DNA of 64,000 nt from an uncultured Gammaproteobacteria bacterium (GTDB taxonomy: Bacteria > Patescibacteriota > Microgenomatia > UBA8517): NCBI GenBank assembly GCA_964494885.1, contig CAZBTH010000001.1, positions 46,319 to 110,318 of the forward strand, given 5' to 3'. Below the pieces are notes generated by a model. That model did not search any database. It was not told the origin of the DNA and saw only the letters and a list, made by a program, of their open reading frames with translations. Numbering within the stretch: the stretch's first letter is position 1; every line of letters begins with the position of its first letter. Below are positions 1,736 to 51,840 of the stretch, one piece after another. Position numbers and translations under genes: made by a program.

Positions 1736-1845
1736 TCAAATACATTCATTAAATCTCCTTTCCACCTCAGCCCAATTTACAACATTCCACCCCACTTCGT
1801 CCCTTCGACTGCGCTCAGGGCTTCGCGGGGCTAGTATTTTCATTT

Positions 1846-2517
1846 TCATTTATCCAAAGCTGCTGATTGGAATCGTTTATCCACTTCAGTCCAGTTAACC
1901 ACATTCCACCACGCCTCAATATAGTCAGCACGCATATTTTTATATTTAAGATAGTAAGCATGCTCCCAAACATCCAAACAAAGCAAGAGGTCTGTGGTTC
2001 GGGTAAGCGGAGAGTCTTGGTTTTGAGTTGTAACAATCTCCATGGTCTTACTATTACTCTCACTCTTACCCACAACAAGCCATGCCCAACCACTACCAAA
2101 ACGACCTAGGGCTGAACTTGCAAAACTTTCCTTAAATTGTTCAAAAGACCCAAACGTTGAGTCGATCGAAATGGCTAGGTCGCCCTGAGGCAACCGAAGG
2201 GTCTCATCAGAATTTGATCCCATAATTTCCCAGAACATATTATGATTAGCCACCCCACCTGCGTTGTTTTTAACTTTTTGGTGGATATCATCCGGAACTT
2301 TGTCGAGATTCTTAAGAATTTCATTTACATCCATCTTTAGTAAATCTTCATGTCCCACGAGAGTATCATTCAAATTCTTAACATATGTGGCATGGTGCTT
2401 ATCATGATGGATATGCATAGTTTCCTCGTCTATAAATGGCTCTAACGAATCATACGCATATGGAAGATCGGGTAAAGTGAACCCTGTTACAATTCTATTG
2501 TTTAAATCAGTAGACAT
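1846..2517 (-). CDS. sodA: Fe/Mn superoxide dismutase
   Basis: HHDKHH, AGGVANHNMFW, DVWEHAYY motifs. Confidence 0.9.
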   Translation of the reverse strand: MSTDLNNRIVTGFTLPDLPYAYDSLEPFIDEETMHIHHDKHHATYVKNLNDTLVGHEDLLKMDVNEILKNLDKVPDDIHQKVKNNAGGVANHNMFWEIMGSNSDETLRLPQGDLAISIDSTFGSFEQFKESFASSALGRFGSGWAWLVVGKSESNSKTMEIVTTQNQDSPLTRTTDLLLCLDVWEHAYYLKYKNMRADYIEAWWNVVNWTEVDKRFQSAALDK

Positions 2518-11646: not shown

Positions 11647-12201
11647 TTATAAATCAACCCTCGGTGTTTTGGTATCGCTTTCTGATACTTTAACAAAATC
11701 TCCATCTTCGGGAGTTTCCAAGCCTTTCAATGTTTCAAATTGAAACATGTCAGCAACTAAGTTGCTTGGAAAAGTTACACGTTTAACGTTGTAATCGGCG
11801 GTTAAGTCAATTAAAAGTCTCCTCGCATACATCACCTTATCGCTGGTATCCCTAAGATCGTTCATTAAATTCGTAACAACTTCAGCTCCCCTAAGTTGTG
11901 GATTACTTTCAACAACAACCTGAAGTTTTGGCAAAAGTTCCGAAATCTTTTTGGATGCATCTTTACCGCTAGATACCATCTTTCTGGCATCCGACAACAT
12001 CTCCAATATCCCTTTCTCGTGTTTAAGGTAACCTTTTACGGAAGATTCCAAATTTGGAATAAGTTCAGCCTGTCTTTTAAGCTGGTTTCCAATCTCCTGA
12101 ATCGCAGCTCCGACTCTGGTCTTTGTCGATACAAAAAAATTGTAAATCGAAACTACCCAAAGAATTAAAATTAAAACTATTCCTAATAAAATATATGGCA
12201 T
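11647..12201 (-). CDS. lemA: LemA family membrane protein
   Basis: N-terminal TM then LemA-like helical domain; start trimmed to MPYILLG (ATG at 12201, 8 nt after the SD GGGGGAGGTG). Confidence 0.75.
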   Translation of the reverse strand: MPYILLGIVLILILWVVSIYNFFVSTKTRVGAAIQEIGNQLKRQAELIPNLESSVKGYLKHEKGILEMLSDARKMVSSGKDASKKISELLPKLQVVVESNPQLRGAEVVTNLMNDLRDTSDKVMYARRLLIDLTADYNVKRVTFPSNLVADMFQFETLKGLETPEDGDFVKVSESDTKTPRVDL

Positions 12202-12206
12202 AAATA

Positions 12207-12285
12207 TCACCTCCCCCGAGTGAAGTAGCCTTTGGCACTTCACGGGGTCCCGTTGAATGCTTTAGCTATTCAACTGGGACTTTTC
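12207..12285 (-). promoter_or_regulatory. Conserved two-hairpin 5' leader element (copy B), directly upstream of the lemA SD
   Basis: Same two-stem architecture as 1655-1735, with compensatory substitutions. Confidence 0.55.
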
Positions 12286-14003
12286 AACAACTTCTCGAAT
12301 TCTTTTAAACTTCGACTATTTATTATATCATCCTTCTCACACCAACCGCGCCTGGCAACAGACACTCCGAATGTCATGTTGTTCATTCCGTCAATATGAT
12401 GAGCGTCTGTACCAAATGACAATTTCACACCGTGTTTCACGGCTTCGCGGACTAATGTGTCGGGAAGGTCTAAACGCATAGGGTCGCAGTTAATCTCTAT
12501 CCACTTACCGTTACTCTTGCAATATTCGAATATTTCGGGCCAGTTTAGTTCAGCTCCTTCCCGCTCATTTAATTTGCGTCCCGTGGGGTGAGCAAATATT
12601 TTTACTTTGGGATGGGAAAGAGCTGTAAGAACCCGTCTTGTTTGAACCTCGCGCGGTAGATCAAAATTGGAATGAATTGAAACTAAAGCAAAATCCAAAG
12701 TTTCTAAACCTTCTTCGGGAACAGGCAGACTGCCATTGGATTTTATGTCAATTTCAAGGCTATTGAATACCTTTTTTACTCCTTTTGTACCCGATTTAAT
12801 TATTGAGCAGTTTATTTGTTCAACCTTTTCCTTCTTCGCTTTTAGCTTTTCGATAATTTGCAAATCTGTATGGCCTTTCTGCGAAGGATTGTGTTCCGTA
12901 AACGCTAAATATTCATATTTGAGTTCGTCAGCTTTTTTGACAATCTCCTCCATGGAACTAGCTCCCAAATCGTGACTCGTTTCTATATCAAAACTTGAAT
13001 GAATTTGTAGATCTGCTTTTACTTCATTTAATTGAATAAGTTTTGGTAATCCAGGTCGAAGACCCTGAGCGCTTCGTTGGGCCGCCTCAATTTCTCCGGT
13101 ATCCTCCCTTAATTCCGGCTCGATATAATCCAAATCCAAAAAATTATAAAAAGATTTTTCATCTTTAAACGTTCTTAGCTTTTCACTTTTACTTTTTAGC
13201 TCCTTTATTCCCTTTTCCGACAAACTTAATCCCTTTTTCAACGCATATTCGCGTAAAGCAATATTATGGTGTTTACTACCTGTGAAATGTTGTAGAGCTG
13301 CTCCGTATTGTTCGATCGTTGAAACCAAAAGATCGACTTGGATATCCCCCGGAGTTAAAATTGAAGCGGTTGTATCACCAGCTTCGATTATTTTTTGGCT
13401 ATTCGGGTATTTTGTGAAATGTTCTATTACTTTTACCTTTTCACTTTTACCTTTTACCTTTGCTAAAATGTCAATGTCTCCAATCGTCGAAGCCTGTCGT
13501 CTTAAACTGCCCAAGGGGTCAATTTGAGTAACATTCTTATCTTTTTTCATCCAATCAATAATGAGTCCGGCGGTCGTTACAGCATATGGAAGTAAATGAC
13601 GTTTACCTTTTTTCTCCCTTACTTCAACTTCTTTGAGGAGTTTTTTAACCTCGGACGGTTTACCCTGAGCGATTAAGCGAAGGGCGGTTTTGATACCAAT
13701 TCCGGGCAACTCCATTAACTTGAAGGCTTCTTTGGGAATATCCCTCATAAGTTCATCAAAATGTTTGGAATGTCCTGTTCGAAAGATTTCGTCTAAATGT
13801 TTACTTATACTTATACCTATACTGGGGACTTGGTCTAACTTTCCATCATCCCAAAGGTCTTTAAGCTCGCTTGTGGCGTGTTCTACAGCGTCAGCCGCTC
13901 GTTCATATGCAATTATCTGAAACTTGTATTTAGCTTGGTCTTTTAACTGATATGCAGCGGCCACATCGCGAAGCAATTCTGCAATTTCCAAATTAGTCAT
14001 CAA
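12270..14003 (-). CDS. polX: PolX-family DNA polymerase with C-terminal PHP domain
   Basis: N-terminal TNLEIAELL...HhH segments GIGIKTALRLI; C-terminal PHP-like His/Asp motifs. Confidence 0.8.
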   Translation of the reverse strand: MMTNLEIAELLRDVAAAYQLKDQAKYKFQIIAYERAADAVEHATSELKDLWDDGKLDQVPSIGISISKHLDEIFRTGHSKHFDELMRDIPKEAFKLMELPGIGIKTALRLIAQGKPSEVKKLLKEVEVREKKGKRHLLPYAVTTAGLIIDWMKKDKNVTQIDPLGSLRRQASTIGDIDILAKVKGKSEKVKVIEHFTKYPNSQKIIEAGDTTASILTPGDIQVDLLVSTIEQYGAALQHFTGSKHHNIALREYALKKGLSLSEKGIKELKSKSEKLRTFKDEKSFYNFLDLDYIEPELREDTGEIEAAQRSAQGLRPGLPKLIQLNEVKADLQIHSSFDIETSHDLGASSMEEIVKKADELKYEYLAFTEHNPSQKGHTDLQIIEKLKAKKEKVEQINCSIIKSGTKGVKKVFNSLEIDIKSNGSLPVPEEGLETLDFALVSIHSNFDLPREVQTRRVLTALSHPKVKIFAHPTGRKLNEREGAELNWPEIFEYCKSNGKWIEINCDPMRLDLPDTLVREAVKHGVKLSFGTDAHHIDGMNNMTFGVSVARRGWCEKDDIINSRSLKEFEKLLKSPS

Positions 14004-14023
14004 CTGTTATAATACACACTATT

Positions 14024-14297
14024 GGGGTCGTAGCTCAACTGGCTAGAGCGCTTCCCTGTCAAATGTGGCAGCTCCTAGTAGTAATATTAGGATGAAAAAC
14101 CGGGCTAATTCGGGGAAACCCCAATCGAAGTCGAAGGGTAATCCCGAGCTAAACTCTGATTAAATCGGAGAAATGTGTAGAGACTATACACCCGGCGTCC
14201 TGAGTGAAATCGAAGGATGATGAGATAGTCCAAGCTTTTTGGAAACAAAAAGATTTTCGCACGGAAGAGGTTGCGAGTCCGAATCTCGTCGATCCCG
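14024..14297 (+). tRNA. tRNA-Asp (GUC) interrupted by a group I intron (exons 14024-14059 and 14260-14297)
   Basis: Exons fold as acceptor GGGGTCG/CGATCCC plus G73, D-arm GCTC..GAGC, anticodon stem CTTCC/GGAAG, loop CTGT|CAC, T-loop TCCGAAT. The exon U before the intron and the intron-terminal G fit group I splicing. Confidence 0.75.
14060..14259 (+). ncRNA. Group I self-splicing intron (IC3-like) in the tRNA-Asp anticodon loop
   Basis: Conserved core GUGUAGAGACUAUACACC (P7 5' strand, very close to the Azoarcus/Anabaena tRNA introns) and GAGAUAGUCCAAG (P7 3' strand). P9 hairpin CUUUUUGGAAACAAAAAG. The internal guide GGCAG pairs with exon CUGU|C. Terminal G at 14259. Confidence 0.7.
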
Positions 14298-18798: not shown

Positions 18799-19028
18799 AA
18801 CATCGATATTTTAGTTCATACCCCAGAGGAAGCTATTCTATACCAGTCCTCCAAGATTCGACCACCTTTACTCGCACCAAGTATGCTTGTCCTGATAAAA
18901 TACTGCTTCATATTTATCAAGTTTTTCTAAATCTTCTTTTCTAAATCTTTCCCTAGAATTAAGAATTACAATTTTCATTTTTTAGATTATACAACTTTCA
19001 GATGAATAGAACTGCCACTAGCGCTGAA

Positions 19029-19049
19029 TATCATATATCGATATATGAT
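19029..19049. promoter_or_regulatory. Operator-like palindrome copy 1 (ATCATATATCGATATATGATA)
   Basis: Perfect 20-bp palindrome; identical core at 19536-19558 and 19999-20024. Confidence 0.7.
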
Positions 19050-19089
19050 ATTCATTGGTTAAATGACTTTAATTAAAAATTGGTGAAAT

Positions 19090-19488: not shown

Positions 19489-19535
19489 ATGCTTATTTTA
19501 TCACGAAGATTTAGTAAACGCCCACTCTCTTTTCG

Positions 19536-19558
19536 TATCATATATCGATATATGATAG
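19536..19558. promoter_or_regulatory. Operator-like palindrome copy 2 (TATCATATATCGATATATGATAG)
   Basis: Perfect palindrome between the two minus-strand genes. Confidence 0.7.
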
Positions 19559-19560
19559 TC

Positions 19561-19992
19561 TTAACGAAGTTGACCTTTATGAAAGTCTTTCTTGAATAAA
19601 TCTGGAACCCTGCCCGAGCCGGCTTTAATGGCGTAGTCAAGAATATTAAACAAAATTTCTTTAACTGTGTTGTTTCTCCTTTGTTTTTCCAGTTTATCGA
19701 ATATGACATCGAAACCTTCCTGATGCGTCAGGATCCAAAGTTTTAATCTTGCAACAGTGGCCGGAGTTAGTTTTAAAAGGTCTTGTATCTTTATCGAATC
19801 AATATTATGTCTAAGAAGAAAGGCAGCAACCACTCTTTTGGCAATCATAAGCCTTTCGGTTTCTGACAGAACGGAGGTTAGGAACTTTTCGGTATCGGAA
19901 ATATTATTCAGATCCTTAAGGAGGAAGGTCAGCGAGTCGAGTGTATACTTTTGTATCTTGGGCTCTATTTTCCTTTTAGAAACATGCGGCAT
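19561..19992 (-). CDS. Putative HTH-type transcriptional regulator (143 aa)
   Basis: Helical protein; the segment IQDLLKLTPATVARLK resembles an HTH; flanked by three copies of one palindrome. Confidence 0.45.
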   Translation of the reverse strand: MPHVSKRKIEPKIQKYTLDSLTFLLKDLNNISDTEKFLTSVLSETERLMIAKRVVAAFLLRHNIDSIKIQDLLKLTPATVARLKLWILTHQEGFDVIFDKLEKQRRNNTVKEILFNILDYAIKAGSGRVPDLFKKDFHKGQLR

Positions 19993-19998
19993 ACCTAA

Positions 19999-20024
19999 CT
20001 ATCATATATCGATATATGATAGTC
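19999..20024. promoter_or_regulatory. Operator-like palindrome copy 3 (CTATCATATATCGATATATGATAGTC)
   Basis: Perfect 26-bp palindrome starting 7 bp upstream of the regulator start codon. Confidence 0.7.
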
Positions 20025-20979
20025 AAGACCGTGGGGTTGAGACAACACTCTTGATTTCTTCAAAACTCGTGGCCTCCATCAGTTTTTGTCTGAGTATGCT
20101 TGCCCCATTAAAATTATTGATATACATTTTGAAAAATTTCTTGATTATGGCAAAGTTTTTGGTTTCTCCCCAAGTTTTTTCAAATAGATCGATATGTTTT
20201 AACAAAAGGTCAATATAATCCTGCCTTACCCCTCGAAGCTTTAGCGAAGTGGGGTTGAATACCCAAGGGTTTGTAAAAATTCCACGCCCTATCATTACCC
20301 CATCCACTCCGTACTTTTCAGACAGAACAACAACCTCATCATAGCTTTTAACATCACCGTTTCCGATAATAACAGTCTCGGGAGAAATTTCATTTTTGAT
20401 TTTTACAATTTCACCTATTTCGTTCCAATCTGCGGGGGAAGCGGACATTTGTTTGGCGGTTCTCGCGTGAATAGTTAGTGTCGCAATATTTTGTTTTAGG
20501 AGAAACGTACACCATTCGCGCGCAATATTTTCGTTTTTACCGAGCCGAGTTTTGACACTAACGGGTATTTTTCCCGCCCCTTTTTTAACCGATTTTATAA
20601 TTTCACCCGATAAATCATAATTACCAATAAGTCCCGCTCCTGCCCCTCGTTTCATCACCTCCCGAACCGGACAGCCCATATTTATATCAATTCCGTCAAA
20701 GCCAAGGTCTGCAACAATCCCAGCCGCTTTTTCCATTAACACCGGATCTTTCCCCCAAATCTGGGCAACAATTGGATGCTGATCTGGAGTAAAAGTTAAT
20801 TTACGGAGAGGAACTCCGTGCGAATTGTACACAAGTCCATCCGCGCTCGTAAACTCAGTGAAGAAGACATCAGGCCTTCCCGCTTCCATTACAACCTGCC
20901 TAAAAACATTATCAGTAACATCGTCCATCGGGGCCAAAACCGTGAAAGGTTTGGGTAGTTTTTGCCAAAAATTATTCAT
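20023..20979 (-). CDS. dus: tRNA-dihydrouridine synthase
   Basis: VLAPMDDVTD...DINMGCP...TIHARTAKQ TIM-barrel Dus motifs. Confidence 0.85.
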   Translation of the reverse strand: MNNFWQKLPKPFTVLAPMDDVTDNVFRQVVMEAGRPDVFFTEFTSADGLVYNSHGVPLRKLTFTPDQHPIVAQIWGKDPVLMEKAAGIVADLGFDGIDINMGCPVREVMKRGAGAGLIGNYDLSGEIIKSVKKGAGKIPVSVKTRLGKNENIAREWCTFLLKQNIATLTIHARTAKQMSASPADWNEIGEIVKIKNEISPETVIIGNGDVKSYDEVVVLSEKYGVDGVMIGRGIFTNPWVFNPTSLKLRGVRQDYIDLLLKHIDLFEKTWGETKNFAIIKKFFKMYINNFNGASILRQKLMEATSFEEIKSVVSTPRS

Positions 20980-51064: not shown

Positions 51065-51840
51065 CATAATCGCTTGCAAGGTGTCACCTTTAATGCTATC
51101 ATAAATTATGCCCAGTCGCAACATCGTAAAAGTTTATCTTGAAAACGGTTATTACCATATTTACAATCGAGGGGTTGAGAAAAGAACTATCTTTGTAGAC
51201 GAACAAGACTACAGGAGCTTTTTAAAATATTTGAAAGAAAGCCTTTCCTCTCCGTCCGACCTTAAAACAACTACCAAAACTTTTAGCGTTCGAGGTGTCA
51301 CCTTTGACGCTACACCAAGGCTCGTTAAAAACTTCGACAAAAAAATTGATTTAATGGTTTATTGTCTTATGCCAAATCATTTTCATCTTCTTGTAAAACA
51401 AAGCGAACATATGGATATAAATAAATTCATACAGTCTATATGCACCAGATACTCGATGTACTTCAATAAAAAATATAAAAGGATTGGCAAACTTTTCCAA
51501 GGATCCTACAAAGCAATTCTTATAACGACCGATGAATACCTATTACACCTTTCCAGATATATTCATCTAAACCCGGCAGAATTTACAAAAGATCTTGCAA
51601 GTGCCTACTCTTCATATGCAGAGTATATAGGCATAAGAAAAACGAGCTGGGTTAAGACCAAGGAAATTTTGTCTTATTTCAACAAAACGAGTAAGGATTT
51701 TAAAAAACGAGCAAATACATATCGCGATTTCGTCGAAAAATATCAAACAGACTTGGGACTAACTTTGGATAAATTAACTCTCGAAGAGTAGGTGCCTTCA
51801 AGTGCATTCAAGGTGACACCTTGAATGCTAGCGCTTTGCA
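51065..51840 (+). mobile_element. IS200/IS605-type or REP-associated tyrosine (HUH) transposase unit, flanked by REP-like hairpins
   Basis: Flanking related hairpin repeats caaggtgTcacctttaatgctatc (51072-51104) and caaggtgAcaccttgaatgctagc (51793-51836); the right copy forms a perfect 25-nt hairpin gcattcaaggtg-a-caccttgaatgc. Confidence 0.6.
51108..51791 (+). CDS. tnpA: HUH Y1 transposase (IS200-like TnpA / RAYT)
   Basis: HuH motif LMPNHFHLLV and a downstream catalytic Tyr region (GSYKAIL). Confidence 0.7.
   Translation: MPSRNIVKVYLENGYYHIYNRGVEKRTIFVDEQDYRSFLKYLKESLSSPSDLKTTTKTFSVRGVTFDATPRLVKNFDKKIDLMVYCLMPNHFHLLVKQSEHMDINKFIQSICTRYSMYFNKKYKRIGKLFQGSYKAILITTDEYLLHLSRYIHLNPAEFTKDLASAYSSYAEYIGIRKTSWVKTKEILSYFNKTSKDFKKRANTYRDFVEKYQTDLGLTLDKLTLEE

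Follow-up and report, generated by a model that had tools for sequence, protein, structure and literature searches.

A double-hairpin repeat of Woesebacteria-like bacteria at a polX-lemA junction and its association with small GIY-YIG nuclease genes

Anatomy of the double hairpin between polX and lemA

The window analyzed here is a stretch of 64,000 nt from contig CAZBTH010000001.1 (positions 46,319 to 110,318; GenBank assembly GCA_964494885.1; GTDB lineage Bacteria, Patescibacteriota, Microgenomatia, UBA8517). On its minus strand, polX (12270-14003), encoding a family X DNA polymerase with a PHP domain, lies upstream of lemA, and two adjacent imperfect hairpins on the same strand, designated copy B, occupy 12280-12214 at the junction. 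Hairpin 1 (12247-12280, minus strand) reads GUCCC-A-GUUGAAU-A-GC-UAAA-GC-AUUCAAC-GGGAC and has two bulged A residues, both in the 5′ arm. Hairpin 2 (12214-12246, minus strand, with its 5′ end at C12246 or C12247) reads CCC(C)-GUGAAGU-GCC-AAA-GGC-U-ACUUCAC-UC-GGGG and has its bulges in the 3′ arm. Both were delimited from sequence, fold and covariation within the family. Copy B folded at -34.6 kcal/mol, compared with -20.2 ± 3.0 kcal/mol in 200 shuffled sequences (z = -4.8), none of which was as stable. The two-hairpin structure that had been proposed from the sequence-only reading is therefore regarded as real on the basis of this fold and the family covariation.

The polX stop codon TGA (12270-12272, minus strand) was located inside the 5′ arm of hairpin 1, and the Shine-Dalgarno (SD) run of lemA, GGGGGAGGUGAU (12206-12217, minus strand), directly followed hairpin 2, in agreement with the earlier placement of the element across the 3′ end of polX and up to the lemA SD. 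This run opens with the 3′ Gs of hairpin 2, and in the fold the base of the hairpin pairs with these first Gs of the SD. The GGGAGGTGATATTTATG part of the SD is native, since the same letters occur in an element-free relative (L008). PolX ends here in ...EKLLKSPS*, and in the relatives in ...K(G/E/R)G(D/E)*.

Other structured features were observed in the window. A group I intron (Rfam RF00028, 90 bits) is present inside a tRNA gene at 14044-14252 (plus strand), and ARAGORN called a tRNA-Val(cac) once 14052-14253 had been removed. A 31-nt palindrome with a perfect core, ATCATATATCGATATATGAT, occurs three times with a spacing of approximately 500 nt (19024-19054, 19531-19561 and 19995-20025), and a 27-nt palindromic motif of the CAAGGTGTCACCTTTAATGC type occurs three times within 800 nt (51072-51098, 51286-51312 and 51804-51830).

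Start codon of lemA

The automatically called lemA start, GTG at 12243, is within the 5′ arm of hairpin 2. ATG at 12201-12199, suggested previously as the better start, gives a protein of 184 aa (PF04011; 11647-12201, minus strand) beginning with MPYILLG. LemA homologues open with MPYILLG, MQYILLG or MPYILLV right behind the SD, and the identical LemA protein is 184 aa long in public gene calls. In relatives L009, L010 and L011, so few nt separate the polX stop from the lemA ATG downstream that an N-terminal extension could not fit. The spacing of 8 nt given earlier for this start holds when counted from GGAGG; counted from GGGGGAGGUG, it is only 6 nt.

If lemA were translated from GTG 12243, the hairpins would be coding and would form an N-terminal extension (MKCQRLLHSGEVIF). 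The frame is indeed open from this codon. However, the 14-codon extension corresponds to hairpin 2 plus the SD sequence, is not conserved, and was missing or broken by stops in every homologue; the strong SD 8 nt before ATG 12201, the junctions in relatives and the public gene calls also speak against it. We regard the coding reading as scarcely credible, and the sequence comparisons support ATG 12201, not GTG 12243, as the lemA start. The hairpin family also corrects gene starts that automatic ORF calling has extended into hairpins, lemA being an example.

Two further copies in the window

Three copies, all on the minus strand, were recovered from the window by BLAST and with two covariance models. 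Copy A (1661-1728), noted before as a second copy with compensatory changes, does exist; it precedes a DUF5652 gene, with the SD AGGAGGUGAU at 1660-1651 and the ATG at 1644. Copy C (1-63), which that reading had not listed, is cut by the window start, and its full sequence is present at L001:10527-10599. As the element is near to its own reverse complement, copy C was at first placed on the opposite strand. Copy C lies between ruvC and a gene for an 81-aa protein resembling domain 2 of EF-Tu; the ruvC stop TAG (52-50) is in hairpin 1, and the element is followed by a weak SD, GGGAG, and then by the ATG of the 81-aa gene.

The 23 nt on the 5′ side of copy A (1729-1751, AATGAATGTATTTGAGTAGGCGA) resemble the sequence on the 3′ side of copy C (L001:10600-10626, TAATGAATATGTTTAAAGTAGG; TAATGAAT...GTAGG), a likeness that was not significant in BLAST. 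A 37-aa ORF after the superoxide dismutase (SOD) gene (1736-1849, minus strand) repeats the SOD C-terminus (WNVVNWAEVERRF; 1752-1798 versus 1871-1917). This remnant is older than copy A, since the same ORF is present in relative L091.

Empty sites at orthologous junctions

The window derives from a Rifle groundwater metagenome, and relatives found through PolX belonged to Candidatus Woesebacteria and other Patescibacteria. The polX-lemA synteny was kept in L007-L012. The element was absent from the junction in the five closer relatives (L007-L011), and none was detected by the model in L012. In L009-L011, polX and lemA are tightly coupled, with the polX stop inside or beside the lemA SD and junctions reading ...AAAGGTGGTGATTAAATTATG and alike; L007 and L008 have unrelated spacers. 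A more distant relative, L082 (PolX 61% identical), carries hairpin 1 and a truncated hairpin 2 at this junction, so that lemA has one full and one truncated copy among 8 lineages. Strain polymorphism was not seen at lemA, where every contig with the identical LemA has the element.

Similar results were obtained for the other two copies. At the sites of copies A and C, the element was absent in all three syntenic genomes, where the genes overlap: ruvC shares 8 nt with the 81-aa gene, and the DUF5652 gene is overlapped by SOD or its remnant ORF. Compared with L091, copy A was inserted along with 23 extra nt (1751-1729). Its 3′ edge is exact, since copy A and the empty site of L091 continue downstream with the same sequence (AGGAGGTGATAGCAAAATG...). 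At the copy C site, the old SD survives inside ruvC, and a new weak SD plus ATG replace the TTG start of the relatives. The 81-aa protein of the window was 77-91% identical to proteins of empty loci and 55-63% identical to those of other element-bearing loci, and was nested among the former. With their orthologous sites lacking the element, the three copies are gains in this lineage. For rplL, all four randomly chosen close relatives of one element-bearing locus likewise lacked it, showing instead either a gap of 13-16 nt or a rplJ-rplL spacer of unrelated sequence.

Size and covariation of the repeat family

A pattern scan of metagenomes for hairpin 1 detected 77 loci, with one or two expected by chance by our estimate. 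In most of these, hairpin 2 came next, then GGGGGAGGTGAT and then a start codon. A scan with covariance model R2 yielded approximately 63 distinct copies. Among 37 distinct copies, 97.6% of the pair cells were standard and 131 cells were changed on both sides, which was matched by none of 500 shuffles. Copy number was low, roughly one per 25-35 kb, with 3 copies in about 74 kb.

Searches of Rfam gave no match at gathering thresholds for the whole window, no relevant match at E ≤ 10 for 12100-12400, and no match in 11 element-bearing loci. No described repeat family, RNA motif or structured non-coding element of Patescibacteria was found in the literature searched, and viral contigs gave no matches to the element. 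These double hairpins are a widespread, undescribed repeat family of Woesebacteria-like bacteria.

A sub-group of the pattern hits (L020, L027, L029, L035, L062, L070 and L078) has a stem like that of hairpin 1 (CAGTTAAATAG...ATTTAACGGGGCCCC) followed by a different conserved sequence, GATAGCGGGATC... / GATAGCGGGATCTACGC..., and had no Rfam match.

Position relative to ribosome-binding sites and genes

The siting of copy B just 5′ of an SD, described earlier for this locus, proved to be a rule of the family: a strong SD was fused to hairpin 2 in 50 of 62 assessable copies (approximately 80%). An ORF start was present in 46 of these 50, and 43 of the 46 starts were 10-16 nt past the last G of the hairpin. 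Exact sites of GGAGG plus start are few in these genomes, with 29 before ORFs of at least 80 codons in approximately 230 kb. The 5′ flank was enriched for AAAG or AAGG (19 of 48 copies); a split extended SD was considered and rejected, native GGAGG sites having no such 5′ context. At L054:839-912, L069:1127-1200 and L075:607-680, the strong SD is followed by an ORF of only 13 codons (MKKLIMNEIYDGK), which may be a leader peptide.

Copies sit between co-directional genes, with the upstream stop inside hairpin 1 in 11 of 48, and also in divergent intergenic regions, with one copy beside each start codon (L055). The downstream families, varied but recurrent, were the 81-84-aa protein resembling EF-Tu domain 2, DUF4870 membrane proteins, ribosomal proteins L7/L12 and S11, an RRM protein, a glutaredoxin-like protein, camelysin-like secreted proteins, small membrane proteins, LemA and DUF5652. 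Two more, which gave no database match, we take to be EF-Ts and YbaB from their N-terminal sequences. The genes downstream of the copies are functionally unrelated.

Several of these features would suit a cis-regulatory RNA leader, in which initiation at the fused SD would be controlled by hairpins that respond to temperature or to binding of a protein or ligand, the regulon being one of small, highly expressed or envelope proteins. They include the fixed distance to the start codon, the occurrence in 5′ UTRs of divergent genes with one copy per gene, and the recurrence of certain downstream families (EF-Tu domain 2-like proteins of 81-84 aa, DUF4870, L7/L12, RRM, glutaredoxin and LemA). Strong covariation of the stems, the pairing of hairpin 2 with the first SD Gs, an excess of G-U over A-C at the base pair of hairpin 1, and hairpins that remain intact beside a decayed nuclease gene (see below) can be added. 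Against this, in none of the four gene families compared was the element kept at orthologous loci, the downstream genes are heterogeneous in function, and some copies are inside an ORF, after a 16S gene or without a nearby start codon. Beyond single bulges, there were no conserved unpaired nucleotides for a ligand pocket, and Rfam gave no match. With the symmetry and pairing described in the next section, we consider such a leader unlikely, though well short of negligible.

Another reading at the RNA level is a constitutive intercistronic module, serving as a processing site (e.g., for RNase III) and as a stabilizer or insulator, that would uncouple cistrons, protect mRNA ends and be selected for expression level rather than regulation. 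It agrees with the two stable helices, each of about 15-17 bp, with the location between co-directional genes whose upstream stop is often in hairpin 1, with the strong SDs of genes that are likely highly expressed, and with a structure maintained over long periods. However, relatives manage the same junctions with overlapping genes, and neither the DNA-level symmetry, the lack of G-U tolerance nor the association with GIY-YIG genes would be accounted for. This module seems rather improbable.

No known repeat family explains the fusion to strong SDs, which leaves room for a role at the RNA level.

Signatures at the DNA level

In architecture, down to its bulges and loops, hairpin 2 mirrors hairpin 1 as its reverse complement. 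In hairpin 1, the 5′ arm carries bulged A residues and the loops are T-rich; in hairpin 2, the bulged U residues are in the 3′ arm and the loops are rich in A. The most frequent loops of hairpin 1, C(TTT)G and C(TTC)G, are exact reverse complements of those of hairpin 2, C(AAA)G and C(GAA)G. As a result, one recognizable hairpin would be present per DNA strand. The covariance models scored on both strands. For this symmetry, loops included, an RNA leader offers no rationale.

Among 1635 pair cells in 63 copies, 95.6% were Watson-Crick. Inside the stems, G-U was as rare as A-C (10 versus 11), which is not what pairing rules of RNA would predict; at the outermost pair, the counts were 19 versus 4, indicating a sense-strand bias. 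The two hairpins varied independently of each other. A single long hairpin or bistable switch, formed by the 5′ arm of hairpin 1 and the 3′ arm of hairpin 2, was rejected, as 75.8% of its positions were paired compared with 76.0% after shuffling. From the symmetry, the pairing bias and the independent variation, the unit that is kept would be a local hairpin with fixed extrahelical bases, present once per strand.

Extrahelical bases also recall a site for a tyrosine recombinase of the integron attC type. In many copies, the 7-bp stems fit GTTRRRY/RYYYAAC, and the center ATCTAAC-N8-GTKAGAT is like a core site, which is a resemblance only. The order of the boxes is inverted, with the 5′ arm being GTTRRRY and GTT at the foot, not towards the loop; position 1 varies between G and A and position 3 between T and G; no integrase gene was seen near any copy examined; and the flanking genes are syntenic core genes, not cassettes. 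On box order and context, this very improbable reading was rejected.

Regarding the behavior of the copies, tandem and decayed copies were found upstream of intact SD-adjacent ones (L021 and L048), besides the truncated copy in L082. At L076:6109-6561 (minus strand), a copy and a partial duplicate are translated within a 150-aa ORF, which is the only open frame; the neighborhood of this ORF looks like a phage-like gene cluster. In L063, a weak copy (2852-2932) is situated about 20 nt after the 3′ end of the 16S gene. This 16S gene (L063:1-2850) has an apparent long insertion with an ORF, the Rfam match ending at 1182 and the 3′ end being near 2830. L048 contains a near-identical pair before two different genes, sharing the block from GGGTCAC to GGAGGTG and differing in the loops.

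No target-site duplication, as would mark a MITE with terminal inverted repeats, was detected, the shared flank length being 3.11 within copies versus 3.27 across copies. Identity between copies was 0.76 within contigs and 0.76 between contigs; except for the L048 pair, no recent burst within a genome was seen. Since copies in the same contig are as diverged as those in different contigs, the structure appears to have been maintained over the long term.

Association with small GIY-YIG nuclease genes

The recurrent neighbor gene found among the collected loci, first noticed as a small ORF beside two copies, encodes a GIY-YIG protein, not a Y1 transposase. In 768 kb of collected DNA, 9 of 14 GIY-YIG ORFs preceded a same-strand element by 130 nt or less, while by our own estimate about one such case would be expected by chance. 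Those directly upstream of elements included L066:2745-3014, L061:3571-3834, L023:1153-1452, L057:1114-1401, L068:199-477, L025:329-622, L059:236-496 and, as a pseudogene, L056:4615-4782. The nine ORFs stand before at least 5 different downstream gene families. Copies of the repeat are thus significantly associated with small GIY-YIG nuclease genes. The window itself contains no GIY-YIG gene, and no hairpin of the family was found 5′ of GIY-YIG genes.

The encoded proteins are 85-95 aa long and have a single domain, matching PF01541 only. Their best solved relative is the UPF0213 protein 1zg2, and 1ywl was also matched in the PDB. L056 shows the order ruvC, decayed GIY-YIG gene, intact element and 84-aa gene, and the other loci of this clade have the element alone.

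It had been proposed that copies on two unlinked genes are a leader receiving a shared regulatory input. This is not borne out: the sites are empty in relatives, the downstream genes are unrelated, the symmetry is a dyad at the DNA level, internal G-U is no commoner than A-C, and the copies are tied to small GIY-YIG genes. A dedicated regulatory input is not indicated, and an inserted repeat element matches these traits more closely than a riboswitch-like leader does.

Comparison with known repeats and mobile genes

Ssn proteins (cd10448) are 94-aa single-domain GIY-YIG proteins flanked by NTS/SRM hairpin repeats, SRM being Ssn-related motifs and NTS/dRS3 those of Neisseria (Chenal et al. 2025, PMC11893778). 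Ssn cuts these repeats only as single-stranded DNA and on only one strand, and its authors liken the unit to RAYT with REP/BIME and to an IS-like element (PMC11893778). In both systems, a single-domain GIY-YIG protein of about 90 aa is encoded beside hairpin repeats, as was seen here for 9 of the 14 ORFs, and the SRM repeats, which are hairpins of 20-50 nt scattered genome-wide and mostly outside genes, are like the double hairpin in this respect. However, the SRM pattern HGTCWYN(0-2)YYVSBRHN(0-5)WNVSBRGN(0-2)RNCYNB fitted none of 92 aligned double-hairpin rows and no site in the window, the NTS control being matched. The double hairpin is an obligate inverted doublet found only 3′ of the nuclease gene, whereas SRM is on both sides; its copies number tens and those of SRM hundreds; and about 80% of its copies are fused to an SD plus start codon. 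The relation is thus one of analogy, not membership, because the SRM pattern fails and the proteins are known here as PF01541 only.

REP/BIME and REPIN elements are likewise imperfect palindromes, about 35 nt in length, whose mismatches or bulges are conserved. They too occur as inverted pairs, are extragenic, often in operons and transcribed, and lack target-site duplication. Both groups are linked to a dedicated nuclease for single-stranded DNA hairpins, here a candidate one. The associated gene is different, being GIY-YIG and not HUH/Y1 (IS200/IS605-like Y1 transposase), and the two halves of the double hairpin, unlike those of REPINs, have not co-evolved as one long hairpin. The double hairpin also differs in its low copy number, its fixed SD-adjacent position and the lack of within-genome bursts. 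With 3 copies in about 74 kb and an identity of 0.76, the double hairpin does not show the many near-identical copies of a REP/BIME family.

Mycobacterial interspersed repetitive units (MIRUs) and Rickettsia palindromic elements (RPEs) are short repeats that, like the double hairpin, insert at junctions of operon genes. Their own sequence provides or overlaps the stop and start signals of the neighbors, so that expression survives, and they are sometimes in frame within genes, for which the copy in L076 may be compared. MIRUs carry small ORFs and not double hairpins, and RPEs are mostly intragenic. To our knowledge, neither is linked to a GIY-YIG nuclease. Free-standing GIY-YIG genes of the T4 seg/mob type resemble the situation here as small ORFs between conserved genes that are present or absent (L056 versus L022); they are different in having a DNA-binding domain, in homing to the homologous locus and in being without a dispersed hairpin repeat.

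Interpretation and significance

On balance, judging from the comparisons above, it is somewhat more likely than not that copy B is a solo copy from an undescribed family of double-hairpin DNA repeats, dyad-symmetric, roughly 70 nt long and associated with GIY-YIG genes, that was inserted at a coupled junction. Copy B is a lineage-specific insert between ...TTGAAA and GG(A)GGTGAT, which donates a new polX stop and leaves the native lemA SD and ATG 12201 intact. The unit under constraint would be a DNA hairpin with fixed extrahelical bases, and its likely partner a small single-domain GIY-YIG nuclease, encoded upstream of many copies elsewhere. By analogy with Ssn-SRM/NTS or RAYT-REP/BIME, the nuclease may recognize the hairpin as single-stranded DNA and could account for the spread or upkeep of the repeats. 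Strand-specific recognition of this kind would explain the Watson-Crick-only stems, the conserved extrahelical bases and the inverted doublet. Persistence 5′ of strong ribosome-binding sites may mean that this position is tolerated in gene-dense genomes or that it is targeted, and the element has perhaps been co-opted there.

In the transcript, the polX stop and the lemA SD would be separated by a pair of stable hairpins formed by copy B. This can be expected to remove the direct stop-start overlap, to put a structured barrier where the polX segment ends and to leave the first SD Gs partly paired; lemA translation or mRNA stability may be affected. Mobility, nuclease activity and an effect on lemA expression are what we infer from these comparisons.

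Certain findings do not fit a DNA repeat easily. SD fusion in about 80% of copies at a fixed start distance is unlike known REP, SRM or MITE elements and suits a role in RNA or translation, and the same downstream gene families recur. The hairpins are perfectly paired beside the decayed GIY-YIG gene of L056, and divergence is equal within and between contigs, which argues for long-term selection on structure rather than recent bursts. The 19 G-U versus 4 A-C at the outermost pair amount to a sense-strand bias. The lack of target-site duplication, the low copy number, the failed SRM pattern, and the absence of a GIY-YIG gene from the window and of family hairpins 5′ of GIY-YIG genes are further points of this kind.

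In a more speculative and, in our opinion, unlikely extension, the double hairpin and GIY-YIG gene would together be an unrecognized selfish or domesticated element of Patescibacteria that inserts specifically at strong SDs or is selectively kept there. It would act as a portable, orientation-independent ribosome-binding-site cassette that rewires translational coupling in ultra-compact genomes, and its inverted hairpins in single-stranded DNA would flag both strands to an Ssn-like nuclease that acts on such DNA when it is incoming or being replicated.

The genomes of Patescibacteria are tiny and tightly packed, yet they still acquire short structured inserts, and do so where an operon is most sensitive, namely after a stop codon and ahead of the ribosome-binding site that follows it. 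The repeat described here is a dispersed hairpin tied to single-domain GIY-YIG proteins, a class only recently shown to be site-specific cutters of single-stranded DNA. If the link is true, it would extend the Ssn/SRM idea to a new phylum and to a new architecture in which an inverted doublet is joined to an SD, and would provide new hairpin-nuclease pairs for single-stranded DNA tools.
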